This document shows, in pieces, positions 2,593 through 29,208 of a stretch of DNA of 40,446 nucleotides. Position numbers and translations under genes: made by a program. The DNA is from Candidatus Melainabacteria bacterium. Lineage in GTDB: Bacteria > Cyanobacteriota > Vampirovibrionia > 2-02-FULL-35-15. The notes beneath the pieces are model-generated. The model searched no databases. It was given only the letters and a program-made list of their open reading frames with translations, and was not told the DNA's origin. The first letter of the stretch is position 1. The number at the start of each line of letters is the position of its first letter. Location of the stretch: NCBI GenBank assembly GCA_016178265.1, contig JACOTS010000052.1, positions 1 to 40,446 on the forward strand, read 5' to 3'.

Positions 2593-3778
2593 AATTATCT
2601 TTTAGAATAAACATTCCATCTTTTACTTCATAAATTGCAAATCCAGGGCCTTCTAAATCCCCTTTTGAATTAAAAGATAACTTTCCTAAAGCACCATTAA
2701 ATTCATTTATGTTTTGAATTTCCTTAGCTATCTTATCCGAACTTTTCTCTTTTACTTTTTCTATAGCAGAGATAAGTATATTAGTAGCATCATATGCTGC
2801 TGCTGAATAACTTCCAAGTTCTTTTTTGTATTTCTGCTTATATTTTTCTACAAATGACCCATCTTTTACCGGAAGTGATGAGATAACTAAGGCTCCCTGT
2901 GCTGCTTCACTGGCACAATCTATGAACTCTTGATCAAACACTCCTTCGCTTCCAACAAAAGCCGTTGTAAGTCCTGACTCTCTAAGTTCTTTTAGAAACT
3001 TTCCAGCATCACCATATTCTCCAACAAAAAATATTACTTCCGGAGATTTTTCAGTAACTAGTTTTACCTCTGAAGAATAGTCACTTTTTCCAACTCTATA
3101 TTTTTCATACAAAATAACATCAGGTGCGGTTTCTGAATCTTTACTCAATCTTCCTAAAAATTCAGATGCAAGGCTTGAACCATAAGGTCTGTTATTGTAT
3201 AAAACTCCTATCTTTTTAAATCCTTTTTCTTGAATAAGATCAGCTAATATTTCTCCTTGTTTATCATCCCTTCCTATGGTCCTAAAAACATAGCCTTTTA
3301 CTGCATCCCTTTCAGTAAAAATTGGACTTGTTGAACCTGGTGAAATTTGAGGAATTTTTGCTTTTGCATATATTTCAGAAGCAGGAATTGAAATATCAGA
3401 GTTTAGATGTCCAATTACCCCAAGTACCATAGCATCAACCAAGTCTCTTGCTCTCCAAGTGGCATCTCCAGGAAGCCCCCCATCATCAACTTTTATAAGT
3501 TCAATCTGTTTGCCATTTATTCCACCCTTTTCATTTTTTATATCCACTGCAAGTTCTGCACCTCTAATTATTGAAAGTCCTAGGGCTTGATATGGTCCTA
3601 TTTGAGGAGCAACTACAGCAATTTTATAAATACTCTCATCTTTTTTTTCAACTTCAGCTTGAGTATTATTGGGTTTCTCTTTTACTTGAGATTTTTGATT
3701 TTTATGACATGCCGAAAGAATAGTTAAAGCAAAAACAAGTGAAAGTAAAATTAAACTTAATCTACCAGCTTTTATCAT
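2585..3778 (-). CDS. ABC-type branched-chain amino acid binding lipoprotein (LivK/PBP type 1 family)
   Basis: Lipoprotein signal (LSAC). YKIAVVAPQIGPY...GGINGKQIELIKVDDGG is typical of Leu/Ile/Val-binding proteins. Paralogue of the next gene. Confidence 0.8.
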   Translation of the reverse strand: MIKAGRLSLILLSLVFALTILSACHKNQKSQVKEKPNNTQAEVEKKDESIYKIAVVAPQIGPYQALGLSIIRGAELAVDIKNEKGGINGKQIELIKVDDGGLPGDATWRARDLVDAMVLGVIGHLNSDISIPASEIYAKAKIPQISPGSTSPIFTERDAVKGYVFRTIGRDDKQGEILADLIQEKGFKKIGVLYNNRPYGSSLASEFLGRLSKDSETAPDVILYEKYRVGKSDYSSEVKLVTEKSPEVIFFVGEYGDAGKFLKELRESGLTTAFVGSEGVFDQEFIDCASEAAQGALVISSLPVKDGSFVEKYKQKYKKELGSYSAAAYDATNILISAIEKVKEKSSDKIAKEIQNINEFNGALGKLSFNSKGDLEGPGFAIYEVKDGMFILKDNSK

Positions 3779-4935
3779 TATGTTTCACTTTTCTCCTTTT
3801 CTAATTTTAAAACTTGAAATTTCCCCTCTATAACTTTGCTTAAAACAAAACCCGGAGAAACAATATCTCCTTTTTCATCAAATGTTATAGAACCAGTAAC
3901 ACCAGGGAAGTCTTTAGTCTGAGCTACTTCTTGAGCAATTTTTTTCGAATCTTTTTCCCCAACTTTTCTAATTGCTTCTATTAATATATTGGTTGCATCG
4001 TATGAATTTGCTGAATAGCCTGTTGGAGGCTCACCAAATTCTTCTTTGTACTTTTTAATAAAGTCTTCATTAATTATTTGAGGGACTGAAATAGCAAGCG
4101 CTCCTTCAGTATTAATTCCACCAATCTTTATAAAATCCGGGTGATCAATGCCATCTCCACCAATAAATTGAGTTTTTTCTAAACCATACTTTGGAAAATC
4201 TTTAATTAAATGCCCTGCATCATCATGCTCTCCTGCAAGAAAAACAACATCTGGATTATTAGATGCTACCTGAGACAAAAGCGCACCGTAGTCAGTTTGA
4301 CCAACTTGAATCATGCTATAAAAGACTATTTGAGGACGTTCTCCGCTTGCAGGTAAAACCTTAATAGCTTTTGCAAATTCCCCCGCTAATGTTCTACCGT
4401 AGGCTCTGTCATTGTATAAAATCGCTACTCTCTTAAAATTATTGTTTATCACATAACTAGCAGCAATCTTGCCTTGTGTATCATCTCTTCCTATTGTTCT
4501 AAAAACATAACCTTTAGCTGCTTCTCTTTCGGTAAAATACGGGCTTGTTGTCCCCGGACTAATCTGAGGTATATTTGCTCTGGTATAAAACTCAGAAGCA
4601 GGAATTGAAATATCAGAGTTTAAGTGCCCAATTACACCAAGTACCATATCTGTTCTGGTTAACCTATATGCAAAGAAAGCTCCTTCTCCAACAAGACCAC
4701 CATCATCTTCTTTAATTAAAACAATCTCTTTACCATTAACACCATTTGTTTCATTAGCTTCTTTCACAGCAAGCTCGGCACCATTTACAATTGATTTTCC
4801 TAAAATAGAATAGGGCCCACTAAGAGGAGAAATAACAGCAATTTTATAAATATCTTTTGGATATTTTGGCTGCAGGCAACCTGAAGTAGAAAACATCAAC
4901 AAAATAATCAGTAAAAAATTTAAGGTCTTACTCAT
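3778..4935 (-). CDS. ABC-type branched-chain amino acid binding lipoprotein, tandem paralogue
   Basis: Same family and the same conserved blocks (VIGHLNSDISIPASE, GYVFRTIGRDD). The MSKTLNF start at 4935 is preferred over the track start at 4953. Its stop overlaps the downstream start by 1 nt (TAATG). Confidence 0.8.
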   Translation of the reverse strand: MSKTLNFLLIILLMFSTSGCLQPKYPKDIYKIAVISPLSGPYSILGKSIVNGAELAVKEANETNGVNGKEIVLIKEDDGGLVGEGAFFAYRLTRTDMVLGVIGHLNSDISIPASEFYTRANIPQISPGTTSPYFTEREAAKGYVFRTIGRDDTQGKIAASYVINNNFKRVAILYNDRAYGRTLAGEFAKAIKVLPASGERPQIVFYSMIQVGQTDYGALLSQVASNNPDVVFLAGEHDDAGHLIKDFPKYGLEKTQFIGGDGIDHPDFIKIGGINTEGALAISVPQIINEDFIKKYKEEFGEPPTGYSANSYDATNILIEAIRKVGEKDSKKIAQEVAQTKDFPGVTGSITFDEKGDIVSPGFVLSKVIEGKFQVLKLEKEKSET

Positions 4936-8351: not shown

Positions 8352-9146
8352 ATGCCAATAACTATTTATGAAAAAGATCAATTTGAATTAATAAAAAAAG
8401 CAGGTAGACTTGCCGGGGAAGCAAGAGACCTTGCATGTAAACTAGCTAAACCAGGTACCAGTACATGGGCAATTGATCAAGAAGTAGAAAAATGGATTAG
8501 GGATCAAGGTGCAATACCTACCTTTAAAGGATATATGGGGTTCCCGGGTTCTGTATGCGTATCAATCAATCATGAGGTGGTTCATGGTATCCCAAATAAA
8601 AACAGAATATTAACAGAAGGGGATATAGTTAGTTTTGATGTAGGTGTTACTGTAAAAGAAAAGTTCAATGGGAGTGAGTGGAATTATATTGGGGATACAG
8701 CACGAACTGTGCCGGTAGGAGAAATAACCCCTCAAATACAAAAGTTGCTTGAGGCAACAAACACTGCTCTTTTTAAAGGTATTGAAGTATGTAAAAGCGG
8801 TAACACAATAAAAAATATTTCTGAAGCTGTTTGCAATATTGCAAAAAAAGACAACTTTGGAATAGTAAGAATGTTTGGTGGGCATGGGGTAGGCACAAAT
8901 TATCATGAAGAACCTTTTATACCTAACTGGCCTGAATATTTCATGCAAACACCAGATACTGATATTAAAACAGGGATGCTTCTTTGCATTGAACCAATGT
9001 TCAACCTAGGATCAGATGATGTGAGAAAGCTTAAAGATAACTGGACAATTGTCACTGCAGACCATAAGCTGTCAGCACACTTTGAACATACTATATTGAT
9101 AACAGAAGAAGGGCCATGTATCACAACTAAAACTAAGGAAAATTAG
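8352..9146 (+). CDS. map: methionine aminopeptidase type I
   Basis: Pita-bread fold motifs (VCVSINHEVVHGIP, FDVG, GHGVG, EPM, EHT). Confidence 0.95.
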   Translation: MPITIYEKDQFELIKKAGRLAGEARDLACKLAKPGTSTWAIDQEVEKWIRDQGAIPTFKGYMGFPGSVCVSINHEVVHGIPNKNRILTEGDIVSFDVGVTVKEKFNGSEWNYIGDTARTVPVGEITPQIQKLLEATNTALFKGIEVCKSGNTIKNISEAVCNIAKKDNFGIVRMFGGHGVGTNYHEEPFIPNWPEYFMQTPDTDIKTGMLLCIEPMFNLGSDDVRKLKDNWTIVTADHKLSAHFEHTILITEEGPCITTKTKEN

Positions 9147-9151
9147 ACTAT

Positions 9152-9160
9152 TGGTATAAT
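9152..9160 (+). promoter_or_regulatory. extended -10 promoter candidate (TGGTATAAT) for infA
   Basis: Perfect TGnTATAAT at 9152-9160, just after the map stop. The preferred infA ATG (9168) is only 8 nt downstream, so the transcript would be leaderless or nearly so. Confidence 0.35.
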
Positions 9161-9167
9161 GTTATCC

Positions 9168-9425
9168 ATGCCAAAAGATACTATTGAATTTGAAGGAGTG
9201 ATAAAAGAATCATTACCCAATGCAATGTTTAGAGTAGCACTTGACAATGGGCATTTAGTATTAGCACATGTATCTGGAAAAATAAGGAAACACTTTATTA
9301 AAATACTACCTGGAGATAGGGTAAAAGTAGAGCTTACTCCTTACGATTTAAATAGAGGTAGAATAATTTACCGTGTTCAAGAAAAAAGAAGGGGAGCCGG
9401 GTTATCAGAAGAAAATGAGAATTAG
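9168..9425 (+). CDS. infA: translation initiation factor IF-1 with a ~13-aa C-terminal extension
   Basis: [11 protein letters not shown]...MFRV...[14 protein letters not shown]...[14 protein letters not shown] is classic IF-1. The track start at 9159 is in frame 9 nt upstream. The tail [14 protein letters not shown] runs into repeat-like DNA. Confidence 0.9.
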
Positions 9426-9430
9426 AGGTC

Positions 9431-9651
9431 GCAAAACAATTTGTAGGATTTGTCCAATTTACTTGGCAAATCCGGTAAGGCGAAAATAAGGAAGGAACGA
9501 GCCGAGTGTTCGCACGAGACGAGCAAAATAAAGTGAGGAAAGACAAGGATAAAATCGGAGAAGAAAAAATAAGCTTTTTGTGTGATTCATTCACCAAAAA
9601 GCGTCGAGAAAGGGGAGCGAGCTGAGCATTCGTGCGAAGCGAGCGGTAAAA
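9431..9651 (+). repeat. structured repeat cassette, two tandem type-1 units
   Basis: Unit 1: hairpin H 9446-9473, GA hairpin S 9495-9526. Unit 2: H 9573-9602, S 9615-9646, then TAAAA and the rpmJ ATG. The reverse complement closely matches 14250-14398 and 12468-12550. Confidence 0.9.
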
Positions 9652-9765
9652 ATGAAACACAGAGCATCAGTAAAAAAATTATGTGCAAAGTGCAAAATTA
9701 TAAGACGCAAAGGCCGGGTAGTGGTTATTTGCGAAAATCCTAAGCACAAGCAAAAACAGCATTAA
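9652..9765 (+). CDS. rpmJ: 50S ribosomal protein L36 (not in the ORF track; 37 aa)
   Basis: Manual translation gives [37 protein letters not shown], the L36 zinc-ribbon pattern, in the canonical position after infA. Confidence 0.9.
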
Positions 9766-9779
9766 CGATTTTAGATTTT

Positions 9780-10553
9780 ATGTCTAAATTAAAATTGCTT
9801 TCTTGGAATGTAAACGGCATAAGAGCTTCTCATAAAAAAGGCTTTTTGAATTGGTTAGAAAAAGAAAAGCCTGATATTCTTTGTGTTCAGGAAACAAAAG
9901 CGCAAGAGGAACAATTAACCAGTGAACTTCTTAGCCCTAATTGCTATAAAACATATTGGTCAAGTGCAGAAAAAAAAGGATATAGCGGAGTTGCAACTTA
10001 TACAAAAATTGAACCAAAAGAAGTAAAAAAAGGTCTTGGCATTAAAAGATTAGATAATGAAGGTAGAACTTTAATTTCAGACTTTGGTGATTTTATTTTA
10101 TACAACATTTATTTCCCAAATGGGCAAAGAAGTCAGGAGAGACTTGATTTTAAGCTGGATTTTTACAATGAGTTTTTAAAACAAGTAAACAAGCTCAAAG
10201 ATAAAGGTAAAAAAATTATAGTTTGCGGTGATGTAAACACAGCACATACAGAGATTGACTTAGCAAGGCCCAGAGAAAATAAAGATACTAGTGGGTTTCT
10301 GCCTGTTGAAAGAAGCTGGATGGATAAGTTTTTTTCATATGGTTATATAGATACTTTCAGGCATTTTTGTAAAGAGGGCGGGCATTATACATACTGGGAT
10401 CCAGTTACAAGAGCCCGTGAAAGAAATGTTGGGTGGAGAATAGACTACTTTTTTATTACTCCAAATCTTTTAAAGAGCCTAAAAAAAGCATTTATTCTCT
10501 CTGATGTAATGGGATCAGATCACTGTCCTCTTGGAATTGAATTAGAACTTTAA
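9780..10553 (+). CDS. xth: exodeoxyribonuclease III (AP endonuclease)
   Basis: WNVNGIRA...CVQETK...GDVNTAH...SDHCP motifs of the ExoIII/EEP family. Confidence 0.9.
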   Translation: MSKLKLLSWNVNGIRASHKKGFLNWLEKEKPDILCVQETKAQEEQLTSELLSPNCYKTYWSSAEKKGYSGVATYTKIEPKEVKKGLGIKRLDNEGRTLISDFGDFILYNIYFPNGQRSQERLDFKLDFYNEFLKQVNKLKDKGKKIIVCGDVNTAHTEIDLARPRENKDTSGFLPVERSWMDKFFSYGYIDTFRHFCKEGGHYTYWDPVTRARERNVGWRIDYFFITPNLLKSLKKAFILSDVMGSDHCPLGIELEL

Positions 10554-10963
10554 TTTAAAGATACTGGCGCAGTAAACAGTGAGTGATTTCTCTCACGCTC
10601 TTCTTGTATACGACTTCTAACAAAAAATGGATTTCCATATGCCAGTGCTGCTTGTGTAGCAATTACACCTTCTCTTACAGGGGTTGGCATTCTGGATGCA
10701 GGGTCTATTATTTCGTTAGCTTGAGTAACTGTACCAAAGTTTGTTCCATGAATATCATCATGTGTAGGAGTATTAGCTATTCTGCTAAATCCAATATGTA
10801 CTGGAATTGAATTTCTTTGAGCAATATTTACATGTGAAGAGGTTATGGCTTGAGGCCTAGTATTGTTAAAAGGATATCTTTGAACTGGTTGAACTCTTTC
10901 TTGTTGAGCAAGAGCTCTTAAGTCATTTATTCTTGTATTTGGAAATCCAACCGGTGCTATCAA
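10550..10963 (-). CDS. hypothetical protein (137 aa)
   Basis: TTG start at 10963 with GAGGAG 8 nt upstream. No family recognised. Converges on xth with a 4-nt overlap. Confidence 0.45.
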   Translation of the reverse strand: MIAPVGFPNTRINDLRALAQQERVQPVQRYPFNNTRPQAITSSHVNIAQRNSIPVHIGFSRIANTPTHDDIHGTNFGTVTQANEIIDPASRMPTPVREGVIATQAALAYGNPFFVRSRIQEERERNHSLFTAPVSLN

Positions 10964-11090
10964 TGTACTATCTCCTCAATAGGAAAATTGTCTTATACAT
11001 AGGACATTTAGTCAAGTGATTGACCCTCAAACTGTGTAAAAAAGTTTATTTAACCTATGTTTAAACTTAATTTAACCAAGTTTTAACCAA

Positions 11091-12467
11091 TTACTTCAGC
11101 ACATTCACCATATCCACGACGGTTTTTTTGGCATCTCCAAATATCATCATGGTTTTTGGCAGATAAAACAATTCATTTTCAATTCCTGCAAATCCTGCTG
11201 CCATTGATCTTTTTAGAAAAATAATTGTTTTTGCTTTATCTACATCTAATATAGGCATTCCATAGATTGGGCTTCCTGGATTATTTTTTGCTGCAGGATT
11301 TGTAACATCATTTGCACCAACAACAAGTGCCACATCAGCTCTTTCAAATTCTGTGTTAATTTGATCCATTTCATAAAGTTTTTCATAAGGCACATTTGCT
11401 TCAGCAAGAAGAACATTCATATGGCCTGGCATACGTCCTGCAACTGGATGGATTGCATATTTTACTTCAACTCCTTTGGCTTCAAGCATATCAGCAAGTT
11501 CTCTTAAATTATGCTGTGCTTGAGCAACTGCAAGTCCATACCCAGGAACAATTATTACTTCATTTGCATTTTCAAGCACGATCTGTGCATCATCTACAGA
11601 ATATCCTTGAACTGATTTTGCTTTTCCATTGGTTGCAGCTGTTGCAGAAGCTTCAACTTTTCCAAATGCACCAAACATAACATTAGTCAGGGACCTATTC
11701 ATTGCTTTGCACATAATTCTAGTTAGTATCATTCCTGATGCACCAACAAGTGCCCCTGTTACAATTAGCGCATAATTTGAGAGTGCAAAACCAGCAGCAC
11801 ATGCAGCCATTCCTGAATATGAGTTTAAAAGTGCTACAACAACAGGCATATCTGCTCCGCCTATCGGAAGCACAAGAAAAATTCCAAGTGAAAATGAAAT
11901 AGCACATATTACCCCTGCCCATAAAATGTGTTCAGGATGCATAAAAAGAAAAATTGCACCTGTTACAATCACAAAAAACTGAAGCAGATTTAATGTTTTT
12001 TGAAATGGATATGTAACTGGTTGTCCTGTAACAATTCCCTGAAGCTTTCCATACGCTACAAGACTTCCGGAAAAAGTAATAAGTCCTATGACTAAAGTAA
12101 TTAAAATTGTAGATATTTCATAAAGAGTTGGAGTTGGATAAAGCCTTACATACTCAGATACAACTACAAGTGCTGAAGCAAGACCTCCATAGCCATTAAG
12201 AAGCCCAACCATTTGAGGCATCTCTGTCATTTTGACTGTTACTGCAAGAAACGCTCCGATAGCTGAACCAAGTATAATTCCAATTATTATAAGCTGATAA
12301 TTTATTACATTTCTCTCAAATAAAGTTGCACAGATTGCAATTAACATTCCAAATGCTGAAAGAAAATTTCCATTTCTTGCAGTCTTTGGATGACTAAGCA
12401 TTTTTAAACCAAGAATAAATAAAACTGCTGAAATTAAGTATGATATGTAAATTATGTTCTCTCGCAT
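11091..12467 (-). CDS. pntB: NAD(P) transhydrogenase subunit beta
   Basis: Multi-TM N-terminus and a C-terminal dIII NADP(H) domain (VPGYGLAVAQAQH...HPVAGRMPGHMNVLLAEA...GANDVTNPAA). Confidence 0.95.
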   Translation of the reverse strand: MRENIIYISYLISAVLFILGLKMLSHPKTARNGNFLSAFGMLIAICATLFERNVINYQLIIIGIILGSAIGAFLAVTVKMTEMPQMVGLLNGYGGLASALVVVSEYVRLYPTPTLYEISTILITLVIGLITFSGSLVAYGKLQGIVTGQPVTYPFQKTLNLLQFFVIVTGAIFLFMHPEHILWAGVICAISFSLGIFLVLPIGGADMPVVVALLNSYSGMAACAAGFALSNYALIVTGALVGASGMILTRIMCKAMNRSLTNVMFGAFGKVEASATAATNGKAKSVQGYSVDDAQIVLENANEVIIVPGYGLAVAQAQHNLRELADMLEAKGVEVKYAIHPVAGRMPGHMNVLLAEANVPYEKLYEMDQINTEFERADVALVVGANDVTNPAAKNNPGSPIYGMPILDVDKAKTIIFLKRSMAAGFAGIENELFYLPKTMMIFGDAKKTVVDMVNVLK

Positions 12468-12595
12468 TTTTTAATACCGCTCGTTTCGCGCTAACGCTCA
12501 ACTCGCTTTTTTCCTCCAGCGCTTTTTGGTGAATGAATCACACAAAAAGCTTATCTCTCCTTTTTCCCTAGTTTCTATCTCTTACCTCTTATCTC
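12468..12595 (-). repeat. structured repeat cassette, type 1, fills the pntAB-pntB spacer
   Basis: In RNA (minus) orientation: heptads 12573-12600, H 12521-12550, GGAGG (revcomp of 12513-12517), S 12477-12506, UAUUAAAAA, then the pntB AUG (12467). Confidence 0.9.
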
Positions 12596-12880
12596 TTATT
12601 TCTTCTTAAACATCTTAAGCATACGATCAGTTACTGTATATCCACCAACTACATTTATTGTTGCAAAAACTATTGCTACACACCCAAGAACAGTAGCTAA
12701 GTTTGTTTCCCCATATCCTGCAGATAGAAGTGCACCAACAACCGAGATGCCAGAAATTGCATTGGAACCTGACATAAGAGGAGTATGCAATGTAGGTGGA
12801 ACCTTGGTAATAACTTCAAACCCAACAAAAATTGCAAGTACAAGAATATAAAGTGTAATTAAAAATTCTCCAAATATCAT
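12596..12880 (-). CDS. pntAB: NAD(P) transhydrogenase subunit alpha part 2 (membrane part)
   Basis: 94-aa hydrophobic protein with HTPLMSGSNAISGI, the typical split alpha2 subunit, between pntAA and pntB. Confidence 0.9.
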   Translation of the reverse strand: MIFGEFLITLYILVLAIFVGFEVITKVPPTLHTPLMSGSNAISGISVVGALLSAGYGETNLATVLGCVAIVFATINVVGGYTVTDRMLKMFKKK

Positions 12881-13091
12881 TTTAATATCGCTCGTTTCGC
12901 ACGAATGCTCAACTCGCTTTTCCTTCCCGGCGACTTTTGCCGAGTAAATCGGACAAAAGTCTTAGGTTTTTTCTGATTCCTATTTCCTAATTCCTATCTC
13001 CTTATTTTATACCGCTCGCCTCTTCGCTTTTACCTTTTTCTTTTCCCATTTTCCCTGATTCCTATCTCCTAGCTCCTATTTCCTATCTTTT
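12881..13091 (-). repeat. structured repeat cassette, type 1 plus a partial second unit, fills the pntAA-pntAB spacer
   Basis: S 12888-12917, H 12932-12961, heptads (TCCTAnn)x4 at 12978-13005, a partial ACCGCTCGCC unit at 13011-13030, and heptads x4 at 13060-13087. The pntAB AUG (12880) follows GAGCGAUAUUAAA. Confidence 0.9.
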
Positions 13092-14249
13092 TTAATGCAC
13101 CTTTGCAAGTAAATGTTTAATGTCTTCTTTTAATACTACCCCCTGATGAGTAATAAGCGCACCTTTTATAATCTCATCATTTAAATCTAAATTTAGCAAT
13201 TTATCTTTTACGAGAAGCGAAATCACACTTTCCATGTTTTTTGAAAACATTTGGCTTGCATGCATTGGCATAGAAGATGGCAAATTAATTGGACCACAAA
13301 TCTTTACACCGTTTTTTATTACATCTTTTCCAAGTTCAGTAAGTTCACAATTCCCTCCCATATCAGCTGCCAAATCAACAATTACAGAGCCTGGTTGCAT
13401 GCCCAACACGGCTTTTTCACTAATTAAAACCGGTGCTCTTTTCCCTGGAATTTGTGCTGTAGTTATAACCACATCAAATCTTTTTATCTGCTCTGCCATA
13501 AACTCTAGTTCTCTTTTGTGGCTATCGCTGGAAAGCTGTTTTGCATATCCGCCTTCCCCTTCTGTTTTTTCTCCCTTTAAATCAAAAGAAACAAACCTTG
13601 CTCCTAAGCTTTCTATTTGTTCTTTTACTACAGGTCTTGTATCAAAAGCTTCTACAACAGCACCTAGTCTTCTTGCTGTTGCTATTGCTTGAAGCCCGGC
13701 AACACCAGCTCCAATTACAAATACTTTTGCAGGTGCAATGGTACCTGCTGCAGTCATAAACATTGGAAAAAACTTAGGCAAATTAGCTGCTGCAATTAAA
13801 ACCGCTTTATAGCCTGCTATTGTACTCATAGCACTTAAGACATCCATACTCTGTGCTCTTGTAATCCTTGGAATACTGTCAAGAGAGAAAGCTGATATTT
13901 TTCTAGAAACAAGTCTTTGTATCCCGTCCACATTAGTTGCTGGTTGAAGCAAAGAAACTAAGCAACTCCCTTCTTTCATCATATTAATTTCATACTCGTC
14001 AGCTTTTTCGTTAAACTCTGGTTTATTGATTTTCATTACCAGATCTGCCGATGCAAATAGTTCCATTGGACTTTTAACAATTTCTGCACCTGCTTCTTTA
14101 TAATTTTCATCAAAAAAGTATGCGGCTTGCCCGGCATTTTGTTCAATTAATACCTGAATACCCTTGCTAGTGATTTTCTTTACGCTTTGAGGAATTAGCG
14201 CAACCCTTGTTTCATTTTGAATGATTTCTTTTGGGATACCGAGTTTCAT
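13092..14249 (-). CDS. pntAA: NAD(P) transhydrogenase subunit alpha part 1 (dI, NAD(H)-binding)
   Basis: MKLGIPKE..NETRVA start, alanine-dehydrogenase/PNT fold and the Rossmann motif VIGAGVAGLQA. Confidence 0.95.
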   Translation of the reverse strand: MKLGIPKEIIQNETRVALIPQSVKKITSKGIQVLIEQNAGQAAYFFDENYKEAGAEIVKSPMELFASADLVMKINKPEFNEKADEYEINMMKEGSCLVSLLQPATNVDGIQRLVSRKISAFSLDSIPRITRAQSMDVLSAMSTIAGYKAVLIAAANLPKFFPMFMTAAGTIAPAKVFVIGAGVAGLQAIATARRLGAVVEAFDTRPVVKEQIESLGARFVSFDLKGEKTEGEGGYAKQLSSDSHKRELEFMAEQIKRFDVVITTAQIPGKRAPVLISEKAVLGMQPGSVIVDLAADMGGNCELTELGKDVIKNGVKICGPINLPSSMPMHASQMFSKNMESVISLLVKDKLLNLDLNDEIIKGALITHQGVVLKEDIKHLLAKVH

Positions 14250-14420
14250 CTTTTACCGCTCGCTTCGCACGAATGCTCAGCTCGCTCCTTATTTTCGACG
14301 CTTTTTGGTGAGTGAATCACACAAAAAGCTTATTTCCTACTTTTCTACTTTATCGGATTTGCTGGATAAACCAGACAAATCCTACAAATTGTTTTATGCT
14401 CTGATCTTCTTCTGATTCCT
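14250..14420 (-). repeat. structured repeat cassette (type 1) forming the pntAA 5' leader
   Basis: S 14256-14285 (same core as 9617-9646), H 14300-14329, a second H 14355-14382, the shared TACAAATTGTTTT edge, and a pyrimidine tail up to 14420. GAGCGGUAAAAG precedes the pntAA AUG. Confidence 0.9.
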
Positions 14421-14424
14421 CTTC

Positions 14425-14452
14425 ATTATAAATTTAATCATAAACATTGTAA
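14425..14452 (-). promoter_or_regulatory. sigma70-like promoter candidate for the pnt operon
   Basis: On the minus strand: TTACAA (14452-14447), 16-nt spacer, TATAAT (14430-14425). The cassette at 14250-14420 would then be transcribed as leader. Confidence 0.4.
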
Positions 14453-14483
14453 AAGTATTGTTATTTTGAAAATTAACTTATAG

Positions 14484-14622
14484 GATAACTGCTCACCTAA
14501 TAGAAGCAATCTTGTGGGTGACACCGGAAGGGAGGGGGTCCATGAGCAAGGTACGTAGCTCATGGAGGGTGACCTGTAGGTGGCAGGACCCACTAAGTTA
14601 TAGCTAGCAAGGTGAGCAGTTA
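14484..14622. other. 139-nt long imperfect hairpin (candidate structured RNA or MITE-like element), class unknown
   Basis: A perfect 13-bp closing stem ATAACTGCTCACC/GGTGAGCAGTTAT. Inner stems CTTGTGGG/CCCAC(T)AAG and CCATGAGC/GCTCATGG. GC-rich core. A partial third copy of the arm (GGTAACTACTCACC) sits at 14756-14769. Confidence 0.35.
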
Positions 14623-14635
14623 TAAAAGGAACTTT

Positions 14636-14659
14636 TGTACATTCGTACAAGTCTATAAA
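14636..14659 (+). promoter_or_regulatory. palindrome TGTAC-ATTC-GTACA (LexA-box-like) next to a TATAAA -10 candidate
   Basis: Perfect inverted half-sites at 14636-14649, 4 nt upstream of TATAAA (14654-14659) and about 270 nt upstream of lexA. It resembles the GTAC-N4-GTWC LexA box type reported for cyanobacteria (from memory). Confidence 0.3.
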
Positions 14660-14806
14660 ACTGGTCAAGCAAGTGGTAGCTAGCAGCTTACCCAATAATC
14701 TTGCATTTTTACTCCTCAAATACTTAAAACGCTAGCTACCGACCATTAAATTATGGGTAACTACTCACCATCTATAAAATGACCACTATAGCAATTTATC
14801 AGGAAA

Positions 14807-14921
14807 GGTTTTGTCCGACTTGTTCGGCAAAACCTGGACATCGTGGTAAGAAGCAAATATCTAGTGCACTCTGGAAAGGTGGCGAGCAAGTTATGAGCGA
14901 GCCACCTGAGTAAAAACAATT
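14807..14921 (+). repeat. structured repeat cassette, type 2 (long variant), lexA leader
   Basis: H 14807-14834 (GGUUUUG-U-CCGA-CUUGU-UCGG-CAAAACC), a middle block shared with 20338-20379, and S-like 14878-14906 (GGTGGCGAGCAAGTTATGAGCGAGCCACC). TGAGTAAAAACAATT then leads to the lexA ATG. Confidence 0.8.
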
Positions 14922-15503
14922 ATGGCAACAGAACTTACAGAAAACCAAACCGGATTTTTAAACGGGCTTAAAAAGCAATACAGAAAAACCCCGCTTCCAT
15001 CCATAAGACAAATAGCAGAAGATCTTGGTTTTAAATATCACAATTCTGTTCAACACTATCTTGAAATATTAATGTTTCAAGGCATTATTAAAAAAATCGA
15101 TGATTTTTTATATCTAGATAAAAATTTGTTTGGTTTAAAGATCTTTGATTCCAGGGTACCTGCAGGGCTTCCTGCTCAAAGCGATGATAGCTATGAAGTT
15201 TTTGATTTTGATGAATTCATGAACATTGATAATGAGAGAGGATTTATGCTTAGGGTCTCCGGAGATTCTATGATAGACGCTGGAATACATGATGGTGATT
15301 TAATTACAGTAGATACAAAAATCAGGCCCACACATGGGCTTATAGTTGTTGCAATAGTAGATGGTGGTTATACAGTTAAGTACTTACGCAAAAAAGGAAA
15401 TAAATATTATTTAAAAGCAGCTAACCCAAAATATAATGATATTCACCCAGAGCATGAGTTTAAGGTGGTTGGTGTGGTAACCGGTTCTATCCGTAAATTT
15501 TAG
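14922..15503 (+). CDS. lexA: LexA repressor
   Basis: N-terminal winged HTH, an Ala-Gly cleavage site (VPAGLPA), and the S24 peptidase Ser (SGDSM) and Lys (TVKYL). Confidence 0.9.
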   Translation: MATELTENQTGFLNGLKKQYRKTPLPSIRQIAEDLGFKYHNSVQHYLEILMFQGIIKKIDDFLYLDKNLFGLKIFDSRVPAGLPAQSDDSYEVFDFDEFMNIDNERGFMLRVSGDSMIDAGIHDGDLITVDTKIRPTHGLIVVAIVDGGYTVKYLRKKGNKYYLKAANPKYNDIHPEHEFKVVGVVTGSIRKF

Positions 15504-19818: not shown

Positions 19819-19966
19819 TGCAAAGGTTAAATACTTAACCTATAGCTATTTTAGGTAGAAAGTACTATCTTATATATCGTTAAGAGATATAATGAAAAAA
19901 AATTTATCAACCTTTTAGTTTAAATTTGAATTAAGGATTGACAAAGAAGTGGTTAAAAGAATACTA

Positions 19967-20242
19967 ATGGCAAGATTTTTTGATTCAGCAAATGAATCAG
20001 TAAAAAGATCAAACTATAGCTCAGACATTCTAGAAGCCTTTGATCTTATCCAAGCAATTTCTTGTTACAGATACTTCCCAACTGTTGACGAATGCATTAA
20101 AGCATTTCCAAACCTTGAACAAGAAAAACATAAGGTTGAGTATATATGGGAGCAGTTTAAAGGTTTATCAAACGAACAACTAAGTGACATTTTCATCTCA
20201 TCACTAAGCAAGATTGATGTATCAAATGCAATAACTAATTAA
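19967..20242 (+). CDS. hypothetical protein (about 91 aa)
   Basis: Track ORF 19949..20242, with the first ATG at 19967. No family recognised. Confidence 0.35.
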   Translation: MARFFDSANESVKRSNYSSDILEAFDLIQAISCYRYFPTVDECIKAFPNLEQEKHKVEYIWEQFKGLSNEQLSDIFISSLSKIDVSNAITN

Positions 20243-20305
20243 TATCCCTTTGTTTTTGTTACTGCCTACCTAACACTAGAAGTTCCAACTAAACTACTAC
20301 AAGGT

Positions 20306-20420
20306 AAGATTTTATCCGATTTATTCGGTAAAATCTTGATAGCAATGCTAAGAAGTACATAATATGTGCACTTTGCAAAACCGGCGCAGCTCATTCGTGA
20401 GCAAGCCGGTGGTAGGCAAA
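20306..20420 (+). repeat. structured repeat cassette, type 2 (long variant)
   Basis: H 20306-20337 (AAGAUUUUA-U-CCGA-UUUAU-UCGG-UAAAAUCUU), a middle block homologous to 14835-14877, and S 20380-20410 (ACCGG..GCTCA-TTCG-TGAGC..CCGGT). Followed by GGTAGGCAAAAA. Confidence 0.8.
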
Positions 20421-20511
20421 AATATCCCTTTATTACGCCTAATTCTACATATTTAGTGATTATCTAATAAAAAGAAACTCAAGTAAATTTTTTACCGTCT
20501 TACTTTAAGTT

Positions 20512-28865: not shown

Positions 28866-28922
28866 CTACCTAAAAGGGGCTTATTAATAGACCACGCTAT
28901 AATAAATCTTGCTAGTCTTATC

Positions 28923-28953
28923 CTCTGATCTCTGATTCTCTGATTCTCTGAAA
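28923..28953 (+). repeat. tandem 7-8-nt repeats (CTCTGAT(T))x4 abutting the tRNA 5' end
   Basis: CTCTGAT CTCTGATT CTCTGATT CTCTGAAA, ending 1 nt before the tRNA-Arg. The same CTGATTC word occurs in the cassette tails at 12973-12979, 13055-13061 and 14413-14419. Confidence 0.8.
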
Positions 28954-28954
28954 C

Positions 28955-29029
28955 GGGCCCTTACCTCAGCCTGGATAGAGGACATGGCTACGAACCATGG
29001 CGTCAGGAGTTCAAATCTCCTAGGGCCCT
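28955..29029 (+). tRNA. tRNA-Arg (anticodon ACG)
   Basis: Manual cloverleaf: acceptor GGGCCCT/AGGGCCC, D stem CCTC/GAGG, anticodon stem CATGG/CCATG with loop CTACGAA, T arm AGGAG-TTCAAAT-CTCCT. No encoded CCA. Confidence 0.9.
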
Positions 29030-29030
29030 A

Positions 29031-29159
29031 ACTTAAATAGCCCAGCAAGCAAAGGATTTTCTGTTAAGTGAAAATCCGGAGCGTCGAAAATTAATATAGA
29101 CCATACCAGATAATGCAAAGTTGGTTTTAGTCTCTGCTAAAACCAGCGGTTATAAAAGC
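29031..29159 (+). repeat. 129-bp insert built of cassette-like modules between the tRNA and its duplicated 3' half
   Basis: Hairpin 29054-29077 followed by GGAGCGTCGAAAA (compare the cassette linker GCGTCGAGAAA). Hairpin 29122-29145 followed by GCGGTTATAAAAG (compare the cassette 3' end GAGCGGTAAAAG). Confidence 0.6.
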
Positions 29160-29208
29160 ACATGGCTACGAACCATGGCGTCAGGAGTTCAAATCTCCTA
29201 GGGCCCTA
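29160..29208 (+). repeat. exact 49-nt duplicate of the tRNA-Arg(ACG) 3' half (matches 28982-29030)
   Basis: Base-by-base identity from the anticodon stem through the acceptor end plus 2 nt. It ends 1 nt before the stop codon of the convergent gene. Confidence 0.9.

Follow-up and report, generated by a model that had tools for sequence, protein, structure and literature searches.

Why do 226 nt separate infA from rpmJ, the genes for IF-1 and ribosomal protein L36, in one Candidatus Melainabacteria genome, when the same junction in sister species measures 14–18 nt? The locus lies on contig JACOTS010000052.1 (assembly GCA_016178265.1), and "the window" here means the whole stretch analysed, 40,446 nt of its forward strand. 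On that strand infA is an open reading frame (ORF) at 9159–9425 and rpmJ occupies 9652–9765, so the spacer runs from 9426 to 9651, and all of it is DNA of a repeated element that we call the cassette. We regard the spacer as a recent, strain-variable insertion of two stacked repeat units related to a MITE (miniature inverted-repeat transposable element). That this young insertion acts as a portable translation-initiation leader, through a split ribosome-binding site (RBS), is our preferred reading, with a probability of roughly 0.55.

Two repeat units between infA and rpmJ

Each unit consists of hp1, an AU-rich hairpin with a bulge; a purine linker; and hp2, a hairpin that is capped by UUCG and contains two tandem G.A/A.G loops. 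In unit A, hp1a (9446–9473, GGATTTG-T-CCAA-TTTAC-TTGG-CAAATCC) is followed by hp2′ (9497–9525), a degenerate hp2 that has an A.C outer pair, no GGTA tail and no following AUG. Unit B is a block of 116 nt (9534–9649) made up of a purine arm, hp1b (9573–9602, GCTTTTTG-T-GTGA-TTCAT-TCAC-CAAAAAGC), the linker GTCGAGAAAGGGGA (9603–9616), hp2 (9617–9644, GCGAGCUGAGCA-UUCG-UGCGAAGCGAGC, with eight Watson-Crick pairs) and the start of an A-rich tail. That tail, GGUAAAA (9645–9651), covers the 7 nt from hp2 to the rpmJ AUG. On the other side of hp2, a Shine-Dalgarno (SD)-like AAGGGGAG (9610–9617) at the end of the linker adjoins the base of the hairpin. All of these features are on the forward strand.

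The original prediction, made from this sequence, had already proposed a 226-nt spacer of two cassette units, and its spacer length and hp1 positions agree exactly with ours. Its small GC hairpins are also present, at slightly different positions from the 9495–9526 and 9615–9646 first proposed. Other details need adjustment: UAAAA-AUG, said to follow each unit, follows unit B only, since unit A terminates in AAAAUAAAGUG; the hp2 stem ends 7 nt before the rpmJ AUG, where 5 nt had been given for the cassette; and the DNA described as GC-rich is only mildly enriched, with a GC content of 0.38–0.41 against about 0.33–0.35 in its flanks.

Comparison loci were reached through IF-1 homologues and are syntenic with the window. 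Two represent sister species (L091, in GCA_964602915.1, and L093), and L087/L088 represents a close strain that is about 96% identical to the window over 5.3 kb. In L091 and L093, 18 and 14 nt respectively separate infA from rpmJ, in both with a TAAGGAG that overlaps the infA stop codon, and no hp2 was found at these sister-species loci. In the close strain the spacer is 78 nt and contains hp1a plus GGTAAGGTGGAAAAGGCGGTATAAAGAA. The window therefore differs from L088 by two extra blocks, one of 34 nt (9487–9520) that holds the hp2′ core and one that is unit B itself (9534–9649). This is the presence/absence polymorphism that had been predicted, and the long spacer is not shared by the relatives. 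The rpoA-rplQ junction gives a second example, as it carries a cassette where sister species have 19–24 nt and an ordinary SD.

One strain difference runs in the reverse direction: at the map-infA junction, L088 carries a 123-nt insert (3708–3842) with an hp1-like hairpin, AGCTTGGTCTGATTTACTCAGCCAAGCT, where the window has 12 nt (9147–9158).

A family of cassettes and its mobile relatives

In the window there are five matches to the hp2 pattern CGAGNNGAGNNTTNGNNCGANNCGAGC, with 0.00 expected from shuffles, and six to the hp1 pattern, with 0.47 expected. Each copy in the window is oriented in the sense of its downstream gene. The reverse complement of the spacer had been said to resemble 14250–14398 and 12468–12550, and a comparison of the window with itself reproduces these matches: 9548–9651 with 14251–14354 (104 nt, 88%), 9433–9478 with 14350–14395 (46 nt, 83%) and 9535–9603 with 12520–12588 (69 nt, 80%). 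It also adds one that had been missed, 9564–9648 with 12886–12970 (85 nt, 75%).

Cassettes stand before all three pnt genes of the window, on the reverse strand. The pntAA leader (14250–14420) holds an hp1a-type hairpin (14355–14382), an hp1b-type hairpin (14300–14329), the linker AAUAAGGAG, hp2 (14257–14285) and an 8-nt tail that runs to the ATG. A strong promoter-like site, TTTACA-17-TATAAT (14425–14453, 11 of 12 consensus positions) lies 5′ of it on the same strand, which places this cassette inside a transcribed leader. Between pntAA and pntAB, the cassette at 12881–13091 fills the spacer with period-7 TAGGARW arms, a partial hp2 remnant, hp1 (12932–12961), hp2 (12889–12917) and a 9-nt tail before the ATG; a part of it (13008–13087) is missing from L088. 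The pntAB-pntB spacer is likewise filled (12468–12595) by a heptamer arm, hp1 (12521–12550), the linker GGAGGAAAAAAG, hp2 (12478–12506) and an 11-nt tail before the pntB ATG. The distance from hp2 to the ATG is thus 7 nt for rpmJ, 8 for pntAA, 9 for pntAB and 11 for pntB. L088 also has cassettes at these three junctions, with different hp1 and hp2 variants; all stem differences are compensatory, and the SD-like motif is retained despite differing linkers.

Two further relatives occur on the forward strand. A variant cassette of 169 nt (14749–14917), not present in L088, combines an hp1 variant (14807–14834) with a GGTGGC...GCCACC hairpin before a lexA-like gene (ATG 14922); it is sense-oriented and ends 15 nt 5′ of that ATG. 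The other (20252–20421, 170 nt) is a MITE-form relative of the cassette with terminal inverted repeats (TIRs), GTTTTTGTTACTGCCTACC ... GGTGGTAGGCAAAAA, and a flanking direct repeat, ATATCCCTTT. It contains hp1-like and UUCG-capped hairpins and directly follows the stop codon of the ORF at 19949–20242.

Across the family, of which more than 120 distinct copies were collected, units measure about 95–130 nt and contain, in this order, TAGGARW heptamers as an optional purine arm, hp1, a purine linker of 14–17 nt, hp2 and an A-rich tail, GRTAWAAA. In the window's species the 5′ arm is a period-7 repeat (TAGGAGA/TAGGAAT); as it begins at or just past the stop codon of the preceding gene, the spacer is entirely taken up by the cassette. 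The first hairpin has 12 bp, is AU-rich and carries a 1-nt bulge and a 5-nt loop. The second is 28 nt long (GCGAGYUGAGNN-UUNG-NNCGAARCGAGC), with UUCG or UUAG as its loop and with its eight Watson-Crick pairs broken by two 5′-GA/3′-AG tandem mismatches. The family is modular, in that other hairpin variants, some with CUUG loops, are joined to hp1 and a GRTATAAA tail.

Covariation supports both stems strongly. Over 117 distinct copies from several genomes, 96.5% of cells are paired (slid controls, 21–45%), and 13 of 20 pairs have changes on both sides (185 cells). Among 123 copies, the four hp2 pairs not set by the search pattern alternate U-A/C-G, C-G/U-A and A-U/G-C and are broken about three times. 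Because the genome and metagenome collections of hp2 were defined by a pattern that sets the G.A positions, the invariance of those positions is not independent evidence.

A scan for the exact hp2 pattern, with one genome per species, found at least 84 loci. Among the matches listed, those with matching flanks are confined to Candidatus Melainabacteria metagenome-assembled genomes (nzgw190, nzgw193, SSGW_16, RIFCSPLOWO2_02_FULL_35_15 and NC_groundwater_946), and 18 matches in other phyla share the bare pattern and nothing more. Hits with matching flanks outside these genomes come from groundwater metagenomes, where a scan of contigs sorted by sample (not by bin) gave 55 loci, most of them from the sample that also gave L088. 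On this distribution, we take the family to be restricted to Melainabacteria. It is also related to a true MITE.

That MITE is seen in nzgw190 and nzgw193, where the hp1-hp2 core sits within an element of 122–125 nt with imperfect 13-nt TIRs, GTTACTGCCTAGC ... GGTAGGTAGAAAC. The flanking 8-mers match at seven or more of eight positions in 33 of the 48 copies listed, against 0.6% expected, and the duplications are A/T-rich, with several perfect ones in nzgw190 ending in ATG (AAAAAATG, AGAAAATG and AAATTATG). Copies lie in either orientation without bias. Judged by its ends and flanks, this element is a true MITE with 8-bp target duplications, and its cognate autonomous insertion sequence (IS) would be expected to end in GTTACTGCCTA. 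The copies in the infA-rpmJ spacer and at the pnt genes have no TIRs, having a heptamer arm on the 5′ side and GRTAWAAA on the 3′ side, and no clean target duplication was found around the 116-nt block or the pnt copies. They share other properties with MITEs, as they are small, non-coding and multicopy and have filled and empty sites when sister species and the sister strain are compared.

A further cassette variant in the window lies beside a tRNA gene. The tRNA-Arg(ACG) gene (28955–29029) is followed by a variant of 127 nt (29030–29156) in which a GCGTCGAAAAT linker connects an hp1-like hairpin to a second hairpin, with GCGGTTATAAAAG as the tail; 3′ of it, 29157–29208 is a 98% copy of the last 52 nt of the tRNA gene. 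The whole arrangement (28955–29208) looks like the scar that a miniature element would leave after tRNA-targeted integration. Directly 5′ of the tRNA gene there is a run of TCTCTGA-type heptamers (28922–28952), which differ from the cassette's TAGGARW.

Cassettes at start codons

The original prediction overlooked what we consider the family's most informative feature, namely its sense orientation combined with a near-fixed distance to the start codon. On window-like contigs, with strain duplicates removed, 27 distinct genes have a sense hp2 upstream; hp2 lies 7–11 nt from the ATG in 20 of these and at most 15 nt away in 23. The other four, at 21–28 nt, have a purine-rich stretch of their own before the ATG, which is a clear AGGAG, GGAGG or GGGGG in three cases and only AAAGG in one (L120). 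The genes fronted in this way include those for S10, L17, L20, IF-3, EF-P, RF-1, RsmE, YidC and FliQ, nadB, a glycosyltransferase gene and, in the window, the genes for L36 and three Pnt subunits. With ribosomal protein and translation-factor genes among them, high expression and a cassette are compatible. The repeat includes neither the ATG nor the first codons.

The linker also differs by context. Counting a linker as SD-like when it contains GGAG, GAGG, AGGA or GGGA, 20 of 23 start-proximal copies have one, compared with 2 of 15 tRNA-adjacent copies (Fisher p = 8.5e-6). Operon-internal genes of this clade use AAGGAG-type SDs. In silico, then, the geometry of a split RBS recurs: an SD-like linker in 20 of 23 copies, hp2 directly after it and a tail of 7–11 nt.

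The mechanism that we propose would work as follows. In the window's species, a sense-oriented subfamily of the cassettes would take over entire spacers, intercistronic or leader, with its tail ending 0–4 nt before the start codon. The cassette would be co-transcribed with the gene, and hp1 and hp2 would each fold locally, leaving the SD-like linker and the AUG single-stranded. The folded hp2 would then serve as a compact bridge that brings the AGGAG or GGAGG of the linker to about 7–11 nt, plus the width of the helix, from the AUG, an arrangement known from genes 38 and 25 of phage T4, which have split ribosome-binding sites. For rpmJ, the cassette's SD would substitute for the displaced native one (the TAAGGAG of sister species) and so keep the gene translated.

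Minimum free energy (MFE) folds made with ViennaRNA predict both hairpins and leave the linker unpaired in all four gene-proximal leaders of the window. The AUG is fully unpaired for pntAA only; those of pntAB and pntB lie in a weak local AU stem, and that of rpmJ lies in a weak AU helix formed by long-range pairing. Scans for terminator and promoter consensus sequences over 9050–15000 found neither a terminator-like site on either strand of a cassette (the sequence after hp2 is GGUAUAAA, not a U-run) nor a promoter-like site inside one. The TATAAA of the tail, 0–4 nt from the ATG or 0–7 nt from tRNA 5′ ends, is too close to serve these genes as a −10 box. In an Rfam search of the whole window only two tRNAs passed the gathering score, and nothing appeared in 9300–15000 at E-values up to 1.

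A split RBS is favoured because an SD-like patch stands 5′ of a compact hairpin, the tail is constrained in length, the linker is unpaired with the AUG free or weakly paired, and the arrangement is tolerated at essential genes. From this geometry and these statistics, it is the most likely function of the cassette, at about even odds. The cassette probably supplies the ribosome-binding region of dozens of genes, including ribosomal protein genes, in this groundwater Melainabacteria lineage.

Several observations weigh against this explanation. The same core adjoins tRNA 3′ ends (11 convergent cases, 9–17 nt), tRNA 5′ ends in the sense orientation (four cases, 8–15 nt) and the 3′ ends of convergent coding sequences (CDSs; four cases), so the tendency to hug gene boundaries is not purely translational. 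Judged by eye and without a formal test, the SD-to-hp2 distance (0–6 nt) does not shorten as the tail lengthens. The SD-like linker could have been inherited by a subfamily instead of being selected copy by copy, and as copies are not independent of each other, the linker statistic may be inflated. Folding z-scores are modest (−1 to −2.3), and the local-window MFE fold at rpmJ favours an alternative pairing of hp1b. Counts of G.U and A.C mismatches (18 and 14) give no sign of which strand is structured, or of whether it is the RNA or the DNA. Finally, TIR-less copies bear no recognisable transposition signature.

The best-surviving rival, which we think unlikely, is that the cassettes are selfish or neutral MITE-derived DNA. 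Insertions would favour A/T-rich 8-mers, such as the spacer between SD and AUG or the flank of a gene end, and would survive only where they did no harm; translation would then rely on the unstructured A/U-rich tail, not on the SD or hairpin of the cassette, with the hairpins kept for propagation or by gene conversion. The composition of the target duplications and their occasional ATG ends fit this idea, as do the absence of orientation bias in nzgw190 and nzgw193, the cassettes at tRNA ends and CDS 3′ ends, and the fast turnover between strains, in which adjacent junctions appear to exchange variants. It accounts less well for the 27 sense copies at start codons on window-like contigs, where only four lie at convergent CDS ends, for the confinement of the ATG distance to 7–11 nt, or for a linker that is SD-like where a start codon follows and not beside tRNAs. 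These are also tightly packed genomes (adk and map overlap, and infA-rpmJ is down to 14 nt in relatives), yet their orthologous junctions retain cassettes of 120–220 nt.

An RNA processing or stability module is improbable as a replacement for the split RBS, although it may operate alongside one. Transcripts would be cut in the purine arm or linker, and the hairpins would protect the 5′ end of the downstream cistron or the 3′ end of the upstream one, thereby uncoupling neighbours in the manner of REP/BIME, Correia and chloroplast intercistronic elements. Intercistronic positions in the operons pntAA-pntAB-pntB, infA-rpmJ and rpoA-rplQ would suit such a module, covariation backs its two hairpins, and Correia elements are known RNase III substrates (PMC2649163). 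However, the eight Watson-Crick pairs of hp2 and the AU-rich hp1 are both short for RNase III, the scan of 9050–15000 found no terminator-like or other processing signature, and the 7–11-nt AUG distance and the SD-like linker would be left unexplained.

Slightly less probable again is an operator for a trans-acting RNA-binding protein with a global post-transcriptional role (for example a ribosomal protein, a CsrA-like protein, S1 or a cold-shock protein) that would bind the G.A-loop hairpin or the GGA-rich arms and place translation genes under common control. Its appeal is that hp2 is nearly invariant outside its covarying pairs in several species, that the arms repeat AGGA/GGA motifs with a 7-nt period, that many downstream genes encode translation factors or ribosomal proteins, and that the TAACTGA heptamers found just 5′ of start codons were suggested to be regulator sites (PMC4679880). 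Against it, no candidate protein was identified, the search pattern itself partly imposes the G.A invariance, the genes downstream are of mixed function (pntAB, nadB, a glycosyltransferase gene, fliQ), and the same hairpin occurs within mobile MITE copies at random intergenic sites.

Translational coupling in the style of mycobacterial interspersed repetitive units (MIRUs) is very unlikely. Here a UUG within hp2 would open a 9-codon ORF (UUG AGC AUU CGU GCG AAA CGA GCG GUA UAA) whose stop abuts the AUG, so that the linker SD would drive the mini-ORF and ribosomes would reinitiate at the gene. The frame holds for copies of the GGUAUAAAUG type, the SD-like linker is 4–5 nt from the UUG, and insertion at start codons, with coupling of an internal ORF to the gene, has been reported for MIRUs (PMC12548453), but by hand count the codon is UUG in 14 of 27 start-proximal copies (CUG in eight, CCG in three and UGG in two), it is not enriched over tRNA-adjacent or MITE copies, the rpmJ and pntAA copies of the window have CUG with no in-frame stop in the rpmJ tail, and the stop-to-AUG spacing is variable.

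The original prediction had also suggested that cassette DNA captured or replaced the 3′ end of infA and so extended the IF-1 C-terminus, and this we dismiss almost entirely: the protein does run about 10–13 residues beyond Escherichia coli IF-1, and its gene's 3′ end shares a purine match of 10 nt, ATCAGAAGAA, with the far end of the pntAA leader, but repeat similarity begins only past the infA stop codon and an alignment of homologues refutes the idea, as the tail (RVQEKRG plus 6–10 acidic residues) occurs throughout the clade, including species with a 14–18-nt spacer. Clade homologues are 82–88 residues long and end in RVQ(E/D)(K/R)(R/K)G with a short acidic tail (e.g., ...RVQEKRGRRIEENET), so the 17-residue tail in the window is typical and its length normal. 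Its presence beside empty spacers as well makes the extension ancestral, and GAAGGGGAGCCGGG simply codes for protein in the ordinary way.

Known systems, neighbouring features and implications

Our literature search brought up no publication on repeats of this kind in Melainabacteria; the one paper to name Melainabacteria together with MITEs is, by its title and abstract, a general IS survey. The cassettes resemble MITEs such as Correia of Neisseria and Nezha of cyanobacteria in being about 120–170 nt long, non-coding, multicopy, intergenic and strain-polymorphic, with TIRs and target duplications in the sister-genome copies and in one window copy. MITEs can be co-transcribed and can influence neighbouring genes (PMC2649163, PMC10969869). 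Unlike MITEs, the cassettes at gene starts lack TIRs and a detectable target duplication, are strictly sense, lie 7–11 nt from start codons and are conserved in two covarying internal hairpins instead of at their ends. In a 2024 review of MITEs, the terms "ribosome binding" and "Shine-Dalgarno" do not occur.

By analogy, the closest functional counterparts are REP2 of Neisseria meningitidis and the IR repeats of Borrelia plasmids, each a repeated, ready-made 5′ leader. Both are described as standing immediately 5′ of genes and containing an RBS and two internal stem-loops (PMC3184786). REP2 is said to include a promoter and the ATG, neither of which the cassette has; the cassette in turn places a hairpin between the SD-like patch and the AUG, shares no sequence relation with either repeat and belongs to a different phylum. 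MIRUs are intercistronic and follow the orientation of the operon, their insertion at start codons is reported to harm expression little (PMC12548453, PMC3184786), and like the cassettes they have filled and empty sites between species. They act through an internal ORF that overlaps stop and start codons and form arrays of variable-number tandem repeats, whereas the cassette's ORF is not conserved and its hairpins are modular.

For the geometry itself, the model is phage T4, where a hairpin cuts the SD-AUG distance from 22 to 5 nt in gene 38 and from 27 to 11 nt in gene 25; efficient initiation requires this hairpin, and mutations that weaken it reduce initiation (PMC3014915). The cassette has the same layout of SD-like linker, 28-nt hp2, 7–11-nt tail and AUG. 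The T4 sites are single, non-repeated and experimentally proven, while the cassette is a dispersed repeat at dozens of genes whose geometry is described in silico.

Period-7 arms just 5′ of genes, including ribosomal protein genes, also recall repeats of a simpler kind. The STRR sequences of cyanobacteria are heptamer repeats. TAACTGA heptamers, in Beggiatoaceae and Cyanobacteria, lie a few nucleotides 5′ of start codons, again including those of ribosomal protein genes (PMC4679880). Unlike these, the cassette's intergenic motif is SD-like and purine-only, its TAG gives stops in all three frames, and it is joined to two hairpins.

REP and REPIN sequences are similar in being short, structured extragenic palindromes with many copies, often in operons and with effects on mRNA. 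REPs cluster at gene 3′ ends, in contrast to cassettes at start codons. The copies that we read contain no GTAG-palindrome doublets (no RAYT search was made), and the TIRs and 8-bp duplications of the cassette's relatives point to a DDE-type transposase. Repeats that carry an RBS upstream of genes (REP2, the Borrelia IR), insertion at start codons (MIRUs) and upstream heptamers (TAACTGA) are thus already known; new here is an SD-hairpin-AUG geometry repeated at dozens of start codons within a MITE-related, modular leader cassette.

Other identities for the hairpins were tried and rejected. Inner hp2 recalls the YUGAG...CGAAAC of hammerhead ribozymes, but three core nucleotides are missing and Rfam gave no hit. 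For an integron attC site, the MITE form has its GTT...AAC ends the wrong way round, and the genes concerned are housekeeping genes. An IS200/IS605-like mechanism, in which replication sets the orientation of single-stranded DNA, conflicts with copies 3–5 kb apart on opposite strands, each matching its own gene.

Gene calls were simple ORF and ARAGORN calls. TATAAT-like boxes stand 6–8 nt 5′ of the start codon at many first genes, such as infA, adk, map and dapB (window 9150–9170; L087 1858, 7788 and 8480; L093 4836, 7807 and 8406; L091 8001), which suggests that leaderless mRNAs are common in this Melainabacteria clade. At infA the arrangement is TTGGTATAAT-gttatcc-ATG, with the box at 9155–9160 and the ATG at 9168. 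Because the alternative ATG at 9159 falls within this −10 box, infA most likely starts at 9168 (MPKD...), as its homologues do.

Downstream of rpmJ, the window and its close strains have an exonuclease III-type gene after 14 nt (9780–10553), with rpoA-rplQ on other contigs (L122). Sister species instead have a spacer of about 290 nt (L091 8385–8673 and L093 5222–5506, compared with 9766–9780 in the window) and then rpsM-rpsK-rpoA-rplQ. Between pntAA and the lexA-like gene, a GC-rich block of 135 nt (14491–14625) that is missing from L088 has perfect 12-nt inverted repeats at its ends, AACTGCTCACCT ... AGGTGAGCAGTT, and no Rfam match; it looks like a second, unrelated MITE. Elsewhere, a direct repeat of 177 nt (3255–3431 and 4472–4648, 81% identity, 1217 nt apart) and a second repeat at a similar offset (3590–3632 and 4810–4852) are likely to be tandem paralogous genes.

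For practical work on these genomes, cassettes are an annotation hazard, as they produce spurious ORFs and wrong start-codon calls. For example, antisense ORFs at 9334–9660 (reverse strand, 108 aa), 14221–14415 and 12440–12532 (both forward strand) arise from cassettes and encode similar "proteins" (...ESHKKLI), and pntAB of L088 was called as 104 aa from a GTG within the cassette, 10 codons longer than the 94 aa of the window. Cassettes can also serve as strain-level markers in Melainabacteria populations.

A bolder form of the split-RBS reading, which we put forward tentatively and consider doubtful, is that the cassette is a mobile, self-contained initiation module that colonises start codons, including those of essential ribosomal protein and translation-factor genes, and swaps the native SD for a bipartite signal. 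In this signal a rigid G.A-loop hairpin would dock on the 30S platform at the usual site of the SD duplex, either bridging to the upstream SD or standing in for the SD helix. A single hairpin before dozens of genes would also give any factor that binds it a regulon already in place. For the split-RBS mechanism itself, if it holds, the consequence would be that essential, highly expressed genes tolerate a transposon-derived repeat between SD and start codon, since the repeat supplies an SD and a compact bridging hairpin of its own, and the split RBS would go from a phage curiosity to a genome-wide strategy. Insertion would also offer a natural route for rewiring operon junctions, giving many genes one leader.

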